Below are positions 234 to 3,895 of a stretch of 64,000 nucleotides of DNA, one piece after another; positions within the stretch are counted from its first letter, which is position 1; each line of letters starts with the position of its first letter. The position numbers and the translations under genes are program-made. The stretch is from IMG/VR virus record IMGVR_UViG_3300012000_000005, positions 1 to 64,000 of that record. One strand, given 5' to 3'. Origin of the DNA: a virus. The notes under the pieces were generated by a model. It was not told the origin of the DNA and did no database searches. It saw only the letters and a program-made list of their open reading frames with translations.

Positions 234-332
234 TTGGGTATGTCCCCCTTGTCTCTTGTAAGAGGCTTTCTCTTACATAGGCTAATCTAATATAAGAATG
301 CGGCAATCTCTACTCACATTGGTAAATATTTG

Positions 333-477
333 ATAACAATTCCAGGGAAGTTATCCACAGGCTGCCGAGTTTGTGTTGGGCTGGCTGGCTATCTACTAAA
401 GCATTAGTAGATAGAGATAAGTAATAGCCAGCCAGCCAGCCCAACACAAACAAAAACCCCCGTGCTTGGCACGGGGG
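333..477. repeat. Intergenic cassette repeat unit 1: ATAACAAT, DnaA box, long hairpin, terminator
   Basis: TTATCCACA 351-359; perfect 22-bp inverted repeat 369-390/430-451; inner stem 389-399/404-414; GC hairpin 457-477 with T-tract on minus strand. Confidence 0.9.
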
Positions 478-492
478 CATTTGCTAGGCTTA

Positions 493-888
493 TTACAGCC
501 ATTGACTTACAGATTTATACACAGACGCTGGGACGCTCTGCTCGTTGGTCATACCCAACAACTTGATAGTCCTAGTAAGTTCTTCGTAATCACTATCGTG
601 ATACATACCTTGTGGTTTATCAGGTCGGTCAGGTGAAGCAGGAATAACAGCCTTATCAACAACGAACTCAATTTCTAGTGTGTTGTTCCACGAACGGAAG
701 CAGGTGTTCTTGACCTCTAACTTACCTTGCTTGGCTAACGCAACTACCTTCTCGGCAAACTTTGCGTTTTCCTTTTCATACTTTTCCTCTGCCTTCTTGT
801 ATTCGGCACGGAACTTGTCTTGCTCAGCAAGACGACTCTTGAGTGCGTCCAATAGGACTACTCTATCTACCTTTATGGTGGTTGCCAT
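493..888 (-). CDS. Hypothetical early protein (131 aa)
   Basis: ATG after AAAGGGG SD; fills the interval between repeat units 1 and 2. Confidence 0.8.
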   Translation of the reverse strand: MATTIKVDRVVLLDALKSRLAEQDKFRAEYKKAEEKYEKENAKFAEKVVALAKQGKLEVKNTCFRSWNNTLEIEFVVDKAVIPASPDRPDKPQGMYHDSDYEELTRTIKLLGMTNEQSVPASVYKSVSQWL

Positions 889-977
889 AAAAGCCCCTTT
901 CTCTTGTATCGGTATCTCCGATAGGACTATCTAATCATTTCTTGTTATCTATCTCAAGCGTAGTAGGTATCTTTTGT

Positions 978-1121
978 ATAACGATTTCTCTGGAGTTATC
1001 CACAGGCAGATGTTTGTGTTGGGGCTTTATATATGGGCAGGAAAAGACAACTACCCTGCCCATAAGCTCATATAAAGCCCCAACACAAACAAGAGAGCCC
1101 CCCGCTGGGTGCGGGGGGCTC
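978..1121. repeat. Intergenic cassette repeat unit 2
   Basis: ATAACGAT 978-985; TTATCCACA 996-1004; perfect 22-bp inverted repeat 1011-1032/1070-1091; inner stem 1032-1041/1055-1064; terminator hairpin 1095-1121. Confidence 0.9.
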
Positions 1122-1135
1122 GGGGGCGTTACGCG

Positions 1136-2143
1136 TTACGCGTTAGCGAATTCGCGGACCGCGGATAGAATGCGTGCCTTTTCGGCATTTACCATGGCGT
1201 CAAACCCGCTAGCAGCAGCCTTGATTGCCTCGCCATTGGCGGTGCGTGATGGACGGAAATAGTCCAGGCGCTCAGTTAGCGCATTAAGCGCACCCCATGC
1301 GGTCCCGCGGATTCCGTCCTGCGTAGGCGCCTTGAAATATAGGTCATTCAAGACGTCGATTTTTTGCGCATGCTTAGTGACAGTGCCTTTTGGCGCATTA
1401 TCATCAAGCGGATATATAGCGGTGAGCAACTTACCCCATTGAACATTGTCAACTGGCGTTTCGAATAAAGCCTTAGCCATAGATTCGAATTCGTCCATGT
1501 GATTGAATGTTAGGCCTAGCACACGGCGGGCCTCAGCGACGCGTCCCTCAACTTTTAAAGTGTGGCGCACTTTAAAAGATTGCTTAGTGGACTTTAGCGC
1601 CATGTTCAGCGTGTTTTGGCATACGACGCGTACGGGCGTAATTGACGCCTGCACACTGGCGCTACCGTCATGTGAAGAATGCACTAGTAAATAAGTGACA
1701 GTCTTATCAGCGACACCTTGCGGGTCTAGAATGAATTCGCGAGGTACAACTAGGCTACCGAATACGATTCGGCCGTCCTTGATTGAGCCAGCGGATTCCC
1801 ATTTGGCGCCACCGTCCAAAATATTATCGCCAAAATTGAAGAGGTCCTCATTTTGGAATACGGAATAGCGGTCACCTACGACGGAAAGCACGTCAGTGCC
1901 AGCGTCGACGGGATTAGTACGCACAACATAGTTGAGCGCGGATTTAGTACGATACCCTGCAGGATAGATGACTGGCTCAAGACGTACATTCCAGTCATTA
2001 AGCAATGCGCCCTTGAGCATGTCCGCGGTAGTAATATCCGCGTCCACGTCGAAAGTTGCATTTGCTAACCCATGCCATGCAGGGGCGCCACGTAGGGCAA
2101 AAGCAACTTGCCCGTTTTCGTGAGTTTCGAGGTTATGAGCCAC
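1136..2143 (-). CDS. DUF932 / TIGR03299-like phage-plasmid protein
   Basis: Motifs AWHGL, SHDGS, TPVRVVCQNTL, VRHT, GTAWGALNALTE typical of DUF932; GTG start at 2143 follows AAAGGGGAG. Confidence 0.85.
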   Translation of the reverse strand: MAHNLETHENGQVAFALRGAPAWHGLANATFDVDADITTADMLKGALLNDWNVRLEPVIYPAGYRTKSALNYVVRTNPVDAGTDVLSVVGDRYSVFQNEDLFNFGDNILDGGAKWESAGSIKDGRIVFGSLVVPREFILDPQGVADKTVTYLLVHSSHDGSASVQASITPVRVVCQNTLNMALKSTKQSFKVRHTLKVEGRVAEARRVLGLTFNHMDEFESMAKALFETPVDNVQWGKLLTAIYPLDDNAPKGTVTKHAQKIDVLNDLYFKAPTQDGIRGTAWGALNALTERLDYFRPSRTANGEAIKAAASGFDAMVNAEKARILSAVREFANA

Positions 2144-2240
2144 GATTCTCCCCTTTCGCATAAGGATAGGCGGGTGCCTATCAATGGCCAGCCTATCATA
2201 GGACGCGCTAGTACTATCTCATTCTCTGCATAACATATTT

Positions 2241-2392
2241 ATAACAATCTCCAGATAGTTATCCACAGCCGCGAATGTTTGTGTTGGGCTGCTTATTGGG
2301 CACTAGGACTAGCTATAACGCCAGTTGCTAGTCCAGCCCAGAGCCATAAGCAGCCCAACACAAACAAAAAGCCCCGCATTTCTGCGGGGCTT
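2241..2392. repeat. Intergenic cassette repeat unit 3
   Basis: ATAACAAT 2241-2248; TTATCCACA 2259-2267; perfect 21-bp inverted repeat 2276-2296/2346-2366; inner stems; terminator hairpin 2369-2392. Confidence 0.9.
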
Positions 2393-2408
2393 CTTGGTTA
2401 GGGGGTTG

Positions 2409-2588
2409 TTACTTCACACCGCAAGCGGTGAGAAACTTATCCCTTTGAAAGTTAGCGTTATCTGCGCCGTAGATAATCGCCAACTCGTAGGCAACCTTCT
2501 TCAATACTTCTTCATTTGCGGGGTTCATCAGTTGTTTGATGATTTCCGCGTGCGCCTTGTAGGTGGCGCGGTGCCACTTAGTAGCCAT
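2409..2588 (-). CDS. Small hypothetical early protein (MATKWHRATY...)
   Basis: ATG at 2588 after GGAGG; C-terminal DNANFQRDKFLTACG resembles a common phage micro-protein motif. Confidence 0.7.
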   Translation of the reverse strand: MATKWHRATYKAHAEIIKQLMNPANEEVLKKVAYELAIIYGADNANFQRDKFLTACGVK

Positions 2589-2802
2589 GTTTTGCCTCCA
2601 AGTCTTCCTCAACTCGTGACTCAATCCATGAGTCATAAGCGTATTCCGCTTCTAACTTGTGCATGCGCTCGCAATCATCACAGACCGCGTCCGCTTGTCC
2701 TTCACTATAACCGCGAAACCAGCCAGCGCGGTAAGAGAAGAAGAAAACAACACCAGCAAGAATAAGGTCAATCATCAGATTGAAACCATTATAAAACATC
2801 AT
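2578..2802 (-). CDS. Small membrane-anchored hypothetical protein
   Basis: N-terminal hydrophobic segment; coupled to neighbours. Confidence 0.65.
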   Translation of the reverse strand: MMFYNGFNLMIDLILAGVVFFFSYRAGWFRGYSEGQADAVCDDCERMHKLEAEYAYDSWIESRVEEDLEAKHGY

Positions 2803-2942
2803 GCTGACACCTTCGCCTTCTGCTCATTGGCGCAATCGTAGCAAATGCGCTCGATTTGCTCCATGCACTCTAGAAGAAACGCATCTACTCCCGAGAATAC
2901 GATATTCTCAGAGGTATCACATACTCCACACTTGCCGAACAT
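2799..2942 (-). CDS. 47-aa putative zinc-binding protein (CxxC...CxxC)
   Basis: Manual translation MFGKCGVCDT...ICYDCANEQKAKVSA; first gene after the unit-4 promoter. Confidence 0.65.
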   Translation of the reverse strand: MFGKCGVCDTSENIVFSGVDAFLLECMEQIERICYDCANEQKAKVSA

Positions 2943-2986
2943 AACAACCTACCTATTCTATAAGCGCCCCTTGCGCTTATGAGATA

Positions 2987-3015
2987 ACACTACAACAACA
3001 CACCGACAACACCAA
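2987..3015 (-). promoter_or_regulatory. Sigma70-type promoter of cassette 4
   Basis: TTGGTG-N17-TAGTGT on minus strand, 6 nt before leader hairpin 2960-2980. Confidence 0.55.
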
Positions 3016-3035
3016 GCCGACACGATTACAGATTT

Positions 3036-3174
3036 ATAACAATTTCTAAAAGTTATCCACAATCTCTTCAACAACTCCCTATAGAACGGGGTGGGTGGGC
3101 CAACACAAACTTTGGCAGGCTTCGGGTTTGGCGCCCTAAATAATAAAGGCCCGAGGGGGAAGTCTCGGGCCTTT
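3036..3174. repeat. Degenerate cassette repeat unit 4
   Basis: ATAACAAT 3036-3043; TTATCCACA 3053-3061; only right arm CCAACACAAAC 3100-3110; terminator hairpin 3145-3174. Confidence 0.8.
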
Positions 3175-3568: not shown

Positions 3569-3753
3569 GCGGAGGCCTTGATAGTGCCGACAATATCGGC
3601 GGCCTTCTGGAAACCATCAGCCATACCCTGAGAGTATGCGTTGCTTACAAGCCCTACTAGTAGAGACTCAACTGAGTTTCTAACATCAGGCGCGGTGAGT
3701 TTGAGAACAAGAGCGATAGCCTCGCTTCTAGCCTCGTTTTGACCTAGTGACAT
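3565..3753 (-). CDS. Hypothetical protein (62 aa), first gene of leftward block
   Basis: ATG after AGGGG SD and leader hairpin. Confidence 0.7.
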   Translation of the reverse strand: MSLGQNEARSEAIALVLKLTAPDVRNSVESLLVGLVSNAYSQGMADGFQKAADIVGTIKASA

Positions 3754-3843: not shown

Positions 3844-3895
3844 ATAACAATTTTATCCACATATCCACACCCCCCACCCTTAAGTCTGTGGATAA
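3844..3895. promoter_or_regulatory. DnaA-box cluster (unit 5) at divergence point
   Basis: ATAACAAT 3844-3851; TTATCCACA 3853-3861; ATATCCACA 3861-3869; TGTGGATAA 3887-3895. Confidence 0.8.

Follow-up and report, generated by a model that had tools for sequence, protein, structure and literature searches.

Strictly Watson–Crick covarying palindromes at the cassette boundaries of an early gene block in an uncultured tailed phage and its relatives

The early genes of an uncultured tailed phage are arranged as a chain of small, self-contained cassettes, and each boundary between cassettes carries a palindrome of 79–89 nt whose outer arms are perfectly complementary, although much of their sequence differs from one copy to the next. 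The phage is known from the 95,461-bp IMG/VR record IMGVR_UViG_3300012000_000005 (G000; rated 99% complete by CheckV), and the window analysed here comprises positions 1–64,000 of this record. The pattern of the element points to DNA over RNA, and natural variants show exchange at its edges. Comparison of related phages shows that cassettes and palindrome interiors have been exchanged, gained, and lost among relatives at the element and its adjacent promoter. We tentatively favour the reading that the palindromes are DNA-level hairpin or cruciform boundary elements of the cassette chain, with a conserved base that would be read by a protein, and that the end box and the promoter would provide short homologies for general recombination.

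A first-pass annotation of the window had described three intergenic inverted repeats with long perfect outer stems, and all three were recovered where it had placed them, with the arm lengths listed in Table 1. The first 12 bp of the arms (GTTTGTGTTGGG and its complement) are identical in all three palindromes, whereas the arm bases inward of these ends are unrelated between the palindromes, yet complementary within each of them. The annotated inner stem and one-sided bulge are also real, the bulge lying on the 3' side of the + strand, which is the 5' side in gene direction. As RNA, the three palindromes fold with −50 to −57 kcal/mol (z = −9.6 to −11.3), and as single-stranded DNA with −31.5 to −34.3 kcal/mol (z = −9.3 to −11.9), with equal values for both strands. 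The 64-kb window contains six exact copies of the 12-mer, all of them within the palindrome arms, and the whole record contains two further copies with one mismatch: one at 3099–3110, corresponding to the lone right arm that had been annotated as a fourth, incomplete copy, and one at record positions 95262–95273. Both of these boxes belong to special units that bracket the array, namely an orphan half-unit (3080–3110) and a 107-nt terminal unit (95262–95368). The special units consist of an end box fused to CCCACCC repeats and two small hairpins (L008:1501–1607, equivalent to G000 95262–95368). The repeats form G-tracts on the opposite strand (four tracts in contig L018), and the orphan unit is found in opposite orientations in two clades.

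A pattern search with the end boxes identified the element in 21 stretches of approximately 19 IMG/VR contigs and in more than 120 metagenome contigs, with a single array of four to six units per genome, including two complete genomes of ~96–98 kb. Among 38 distinct copies, end positions 1–18 are Watson–Crick paired without exception (684 of 684), and an alignment of 40 distinct copies over 19 outer pairs contains 758 Watson–Crick cells out of 758 and not one G-U pair. Ten of these 19 pairs vary, with 128 two-sided and no one-sided changes, a result that none of 500 shuffles equalled, and sliding the alignment of the outer stem as a control left only 32–46% of positions paired. Thus, the proposal that pairing is kept independently of sequence stands. 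The perfect palindrome measures 18–26 bp in this subclade, and orthologous palindromes in phages with 75–85% identity differ by single pairs, each of which is compensated. The first-pass statement that only the outer 12 bp are identical holds for the three copies of this phage, but the ends are not invariant as such, since they covary across relatives in the form of two variant boxes, each with a matching partner. Three end-box variants even coexist in one genome, where each unit is self-complementary, and this argues against two independent sites recognized as B-form DNA.

In the wider metagenome set, arm lengths are bimodal, comprising either 11-bp boxes alone or perfect arms of 19–36 bp with no imperfect intermediates, and the distance between the two boxes ranges from ~40 to 120 bp. 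The 5' arms are GT-rich (68% G+T), with an enrichment of GTGTG and GGCTG. Several other phage clades (L040, L073, L129, L153, L154, and others) have the same end boxes around a non-palindromic interior that is GT-rich over its 5' half and has CTCGCT repeats over its 3' half. A pattern search of 185,579 bacterial genomes returned two unrelated-looking places only, so that a host family of repetitive extragenic palindromic (REP) sequences was rejected. An Acetobacteraceae metagenome-assembled genome (L032:303–373) encodes a palindrome with 22-bp arms and the same 12-bp ends in an apparently chromosomal intergenic region upstream of an asparaginase-like gene, which may be a chance occurrence or a distant relative of the element. 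A literature search for the box sequence yielded unrelated primers only.

The neighbouring terminator stems contain 40 G-U among 440 predicted pairs, compared to none in the outer stems of the palindromes. When folded as RNA, the sense strand is on average 3 kcal/mol more stable than the antisense strand and forms more G-U pairs (53 vs. 12). However, composition-matched shuffles reproduce this difference exactly, and a sense-strand RNA signal was therefore rejected in favour of GT skew rather than selection. An antisense small RNA was dismissed as well, since the mirror-image promoter it would need is weak and U tails are missing from two of its three "terminators". The small-RNA family considered in the first-pass annotation is thus not supported, as the layout leaves no room for a sense promoter, the antisense direction is without consistent terminators, the stems contain no G-U pairs, and the strand asymmetry follows base composition. 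A match to a known Rfam or REP family, which would have given the hairpins a mundane explanation, was not found either. No Rfam family reached its gathering threshold: the best match was Phe_leader (44.8 bits vs. 55), and the others, leader peptides and look-alikes of plant miRNA precursors, likewise reflect the combination of a long hairpin and a terminator. The lack of G-U pairs, the equal folding of both strands, and the bimodal arm lengths fit an upkeep of the palindrome at the DNA level, either because both strands must fold, as in a cruciform, or because fold-back templating corrects one arm against the other. AGCT was considered as a displayed nick site and dropped, as it is present in 23 of 38 interiors but shows no preference among bulge, loop, and stem.

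In gene direction, every unit has the same order of a promoter block, an 80–110-nt leader, one to three small genes, a GC-rich intrinsic terminator, the palindrome, 2–14 nt, and the next promoter block. The palindrome begins immediately inside the T-rich tail of the preceding terminator. Among 71 oriented units, the element always lies ahead of the conserved promoter box, at a spacing of 2–36 nt, and in 38 of them at least four of the six preceding bases are T, as expected of a terminator tail. The annotated position of each hairpin between a separate terminator and the next promoter is therefore correct once the frame is changed to the minus-strand genes, and as the separate terminators precede the palindromes, termination does not explain them. 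The promoter calls are based on a conserved two-block motif with an extended −10, which a sigma-70 scan did not flag. Every early promoter, including those at window positions 3853–3895 and G000 95012 in addition to the blocks in Table 1, contains a perfect DnaA-box 9-mer (TTATCCACA, + strand). This 9-mer is confined to the early block within the 95-kb genome and forms half of a dyad (GATAAC, 11–12 nt, GTTATM) that overlaps the −35 and −10 positions. Its occurrence in back-to-back pairs in relatives suggests the operator of a dimeric regulator as much as host DnaA. Each of the cassette leaders (window 240–300, 890–960, and 2165–2235, minus strand) has a small stem-loop ahead of a conserved, purine-rich stretch for ribosome binding (AAGAGA..AAGGGG type).

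Related contigs document exchange at these junctions. Flanks nearly identical to those in G000 surround palindrome 3 in L016, but its interior is replaced by an unrelated and again perfect palindrome, with changes that begin inside the 5' box and fade just past the promoter. The terminal unit is missing from L011 (97% identical) through a clean 114-nt deletion. In L018, the space between the orthologues of palindromes 2 and 1 is occupied not by the 131-aa gene but by two different genes, and homology ends ~35 nt past palindrome 2, at the promoter, and resumes 3 nt ahead of palindrome 1. An additional palindrome-flanked cassette is present in L027 and absent in L017, so that the expectation of different genes between conserved hairpins in related genomes was borne out in more than one case. 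Furthermore, L022 has one cassette between two related palindromes in direct order, and the DUF932 gene precedes another cassette in some lineages but follows it in others. The diversity of the cargo is moderate, as the first genes downstream of 109 junctions belong to 27 families, five of which dominate. These exchanges indicate that two alternating module types are swapped separately, one comprising palindrome and promoter and the other leader, gene, and terminator. Since related phages swapped genes exactly at the palindromes, these mark exchangeable modules.

In the reading we favour, the element would consist of two inverted boxes of 11–12 bp that are kept mutually complementary and, in this subclade, are extended to a long perfect palindrome. 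Upon strand opening, which a replication fork or negative supercoiling directly upstream of a strong early promoter could cause, it would fold into an intrastrand hairpin or cruciform, and a putative protein reading the conserved stem base would keep one transcription unit apart from the next. The modules would most likely be exchanged by the general (RecA-type) recombination of the phage acting on short conserved sequences, and not by a dedicated site-specific recombinase, as proposed for the promoter-early stem-loop (PeSL) cassettes. RecA prefers GT-rich DNA, which makes the GT-rich 5' arms a lead, though not a test. Among 20 further proteins of the replication module, a scan found no recognizable junction nuclease and recognized only a MerR/HTH_17 (excisionase-like) protein of 157 aa (G000 68287–68760, + strand). 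As the only recognizable small DNA binder in this module, it is a candidate reader of the promoter dyad or of the boxes.

Several observations weigh against this reading. Related clades have units that retain only the 11-bp ends and show no significant inner structure, indicating that long arms are not essential to the function of the boxes. Six units from other clades, possibly through shared ancestry, have T opposite G at box position 9 in gene orientation, but none has C opposite A, a pairing bias that would be tolerated in sense-strand RNA or in single-stranded DNA. Perfect arms could also be maintained by templated fold-back correction without any selection on structure, and extrusion of a cruciform is kinetically hard when the arms are 17–50 nt apart and the spacer is partly unpaired. 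The spacing of 2–36 nt to the promoter box makes a phased, activator-type role unlikely, and no protein partner of the palindromes was identified. Finally, breakpoints at the palindromes are partly expected because the interior is hypervariable.

If the palindromes instead functioned as RNA, transcripts reading through the terminator would fold the hairpin, and host RNase III or a phage factor would cut or bind it, thereby uncoupling cassettes or setting mRNA stability in the manner of the early RNase III sites of T7 or lambda sib. The arms would suit this role, since perfect helices of 20 bp or more are classic substrates of RNase III, and the palindrome lies on the transcribed side directly past the terminator. 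Most copies also have their bulge on a consistent side with respect to gene direction. The sense-only T opposite G in another clade (six vs. none) and the better average folding of the sense strand agree with it too. We still consider an RNA element unlikely, because the neighbouring terminator stems have the G-U pairs that the 758 stem cells lack, along with any one-sided change, and because the folding advantage is fully matched by shuffles. In addition, the strong terminator ahead of every palindrome should leave little RNA that includes it, the phage has no RNase III gene, no Rfam family was matched at threshold, and bimodal arms without imperfect stems are unlike usual RNA stems. We assign a similarly low probability to an explanation in which the two 11-bp boxes alone are functional. 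A regulator or roadblock protein would recognize them as plain duplex DNA, as in stoperators, and the extended palindrome would be a mutational by-product of fold-back template switching between the inverted boxes. This would account for the other-clade units that keep the boxes without extended arms or inner structure, for the orphan single boxes in either orientation at array starts, for the bimodal arm lengths, and for the GT-rich, low-complexity 5' halves, of which the 3' arms are simply the complements. Independent sites, however, would not need the left and right boxes of a unit to be always the same variant while variants coexist in a genome, although templated homogenization could produce this agreement, and box-to-box distances of ~40–120 bp together with box-to-promoter distances of 2–36 nt are awkward for a fixed protein bridge.

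More doubtful than either of these is that the palindromes are substrates of a structure-specific DNA transaction without a known enzyme, in which extruded hairpins would be cut or exchanged across the stem, so that a single event swaps a whole interior or cassette while the arms stay complementary. If true, the phage would possess a recombinase-independent counterpart of the integron that shuffles its first-expressed, probably anti-defence, genes. A role of the palindromes in genome entry, replication priming, or packaging, for example as pause sites of stepwise injection or as hairpin priming sites, is improbable. The array does lie in the first-expressed block, adjoined by parS-like palindromes and repeat-rich non-coding DNA, and homologues of its DUF932 gene are found in the terminal repeats of Streptomyces phages. 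Yet the complete relatives assemble as circles with an internal array, nothing links four to six sites at exact terminator–promoter junctions to entry or replication, and Streptomyces phage Jay2Jay, which has the DUF932 homologue in its terminal repeat, contains no comparable hairpins. We regard as quite improbable the integron-like mechanism raised in the first-pass annotation, in which a recombinase acts on folded hairpins to excise or insert cassettes. Conserved ends, variable palindromic interiors, a consistent asymmetry, and a special unit at the array start are all reminiscent of such a system, as are cassette gain, loss, and reordering among relatives and the L022 cassette between directly ordered palindromes. 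The enzymes are missing, however: the 99%-complete record has no match to Phage_integrase (PF00589, tyrosine recombinase), no serine recombinase or resolvase, and no Y1_Tnp (HUH) transposase. Moreover, the ends do not resemble attC core sites and there are no extrahelical bases in the stems, one class of breakpoints lies past the promoter and thus outside the hairpin, about five gene families dominate the 109 junctions, and the cassettes have promoters and terminators of their own. Least probable of all, in our view, are selfish miniature mobile palindromes that target terminator tails. The gain or loss of entire units between 97%-identical genomes at near-precise junctions, and the recurrence of similar interiors at different junctions, are what mobility would predict, but copied elements would share their arms, which here differ between copies. 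There is also no visible target-site duplication and no transposase in the phage, and the pattern is confined to one array per genome and to only two places in the bacterial genomes searched.

The phage encodes a contractile-tail baseplate, a terminase, and an SPP1-type portal, as well as PolA, RecA, an SNF2 helicase, and a class II ribonucleotide reductase. A blastn search against cultured phages gave no match, and its nearest cultured relatives based on PolA are Streptomyces phages, with a best identity of 40%. The minus-strand block runs from window position 3753 down to 1 and continues over the contig ends to ~89 kb. The contig break falls within the array, where ~1.3 kb are absent compared to L023 and L011. 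This stretch holds three or four genes, a fourth palindrome, and what remains of the acidic gene, so that the record falls slightly short of complete and its ends are assembly breaks. The first large genes past the array encode an AAA_5 (MoxR/CobS-like) ATPase and a VWA protein (G000 91527–94888, minus strand) and are kept in all related contigs.

No family could be assigned to the cassette proteins other than DUF932. The DUF932 homologues of Streptomyces phages such as Jay2Jay (~49% identity) are located inside the terminal repeats, 1.2–2.6 kb from the left end. With DUF932, a very acidic protein, and ORFans, the cassette genes would fit a block for early host takeover or anti-defence. Two related phages (L010, sense coordinate 7608; L022, sense coordinate 12296) have a canonical bacterial parS palindrome (TGTTTCACGTGAAACA type) beside the terminal unit or beside a palindrome. 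The corresponding place in this phage (L008:1621–1640) has a differently centred 16-bp palindrome, and neither a ParB nor a ParB_N gene was found in the phage genome.

Table 1. Features of the early cassette array in the window (positions refer to the 64,000-nt window; aa, amino acids; ORF, open reading frame)
Feature	Position	Strand	Remarks
Boundary palindrome 1	369..451		Perfect 22-bp arms, 17-nt one-sided bulge, 9-bp inner stem
Boundary palindrome 2	1012..1090		Perfect 21-bp arms, 6-nt bulge, inner stem-loop; L009 and L018 orthologues with compensated changes
Boundary palindrome 3	2277..2365		Perfect 20-bp arms; whole interior differs in near-identical contig L016
Orphan half-unit at array start	3080..3110		One end box joined to CCCACCC-type repeat, no partner arm; reversed in another clade
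Intrinsic terminator of 131-aa gene	456..478	−	T-run enters 5' arm of palindrome 1
Intrinsic terminator of DUF932 gene	1095..1121	−	Adjoins palindrome 2
Intrinsic terminator of three-small-ORF cassette	2365..2396	−	Adjoins palindrome 3
Terminator upstream of orphan half-unit	3145..3174	−	
Putative early promoter/operator block	330..360	−	TGTGGATAAC box, ~10 nt, extended −10; 8 nt downstream of palindrome 1 in gene direction
Putative early promoter block	975..1005	−	Downstream of palindrome 2
Putative early promoter block	2238..2268	−	Downstream of palindrome 3
Putative early promoter block	3033..3061	−	Downstream of orphan half-unit
Cassette gene c3, truncated by contig end	3..233	−	5' part of very acidic ~160-aa protein
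Cassette gene c10, 131 aa	493..888	−	No known family; two other genes stand in its place in L018
Cassette gene c1, 341 aa	1136..2161	−	DUF932 / phrog_1221, E 7e-52
Cassette of three small ORFs (75, 74, 47 aa)	2409..2942	−	No known families

Early, self-promoted small genes are where phages hold host-takeover and anti-defence functions, and to our knowledge the exchange of such genes is largely unexplained beyond the PeSL model. In the present case, each cassette boundary throughout an entire clade of uncultured ~95-kb freshwater-type phages is marked by an element with conserved, perfectly covarying pairing. If a protein reads these hairpins, they would represent a new kind of boundary or recombination signal, as well as a practical flag for accessory early-gene cassettes in metagenomic phage genomes.

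Parts of this arrangement are found in several known systems. The stoperators of cluster A mycobacteriophages are also short conserved words repeated in intergenic gaps along a phage genome, where they are read by one protein, but they are single asymmetric 13-bp sites and not paired complementary inverted boxes, and they lack any palindromic extension. The T7 early-region RNase III sites and lambda sib likewise place long hairpins between or behind phage early genes. However, these lie within transcripts and contain internal loops and non-Watson–Crick pairs, whereas the palindromes described here are located past the terminators and are perfect on both strands. Like REP sequences and the mosaic elements they build (BIME), REPIN-RAYT systems, and Correia and other miniature inverted-repeat transposable elements (MITEs), they are intergenic palindromic repeats, often beside terminators, that can form long hairpins. 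In contrast to REP sequences and REPINs, they are not accompanied by RAYT or another transposase, are restricted to one array per genome instead of being dispersed, are essentially absent from bacterial genomes, and have arms that differ between copies but are compensated. They differ from MITEs in that only the outer 11–12 bp are common to the copies, the inner arm being copy-specific, and that no flanking duplication was seen.

The attC sites of integrons share more of the logic, as structure is conserved over sequence, conserved ends enclose interiors that vary in sequence and length, and the sites lie between cassettes with a consistent asymmetry. The core sites at the ends of attC are RYYYAAC ... 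GTTRRRY, whereas the ends here are GTTTGTG ... CACAAAC, with GTT/AAC outermost and not innermost. The outer 18–26 bp are perfect in all 38–40 distinct copies, without the extrahelical bases or the unpaired central spacer of attC, and the phage has no IntI. In addition, each cassette has its own promoter block and terminator, while integron cassettes are promoterless and expressed from the common Pc.

The PeSL cassettes known from T4-type phages (PMC2839356, PMC4122927) show the greatest resemblance. Both systems consist of a conserved intergenic composite of an early promoter and a stem-loop that is repeated between small early or accessory genes, here in the form of a palindrome and promoter block at each junction. 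In both, ORFs are inserted, deleted, or replaced at the modules between close relatives, and neither has a dedicated recombinase. The stem-loop of PeSL is nevertheless a different structure: it is short, functions itself as a terminator or attenuator, overlaps the promoter, and contains G-T pairs, with the entire module spanning ~100 bp (PMC2839356, PMC4122927). In this phage, which is unrelated to T4, a separate terminator is followed by an extra palindrome of 60–90 nt with fixed ends, strictly Watson–Crick covarying arms, and a hypervariable interior, and no G-T pair is found in 758 cells. The logic is shared with PeSL, and what is new is the separate, long, and strictly Watson–Crick covarying palindrome with fixed ends.

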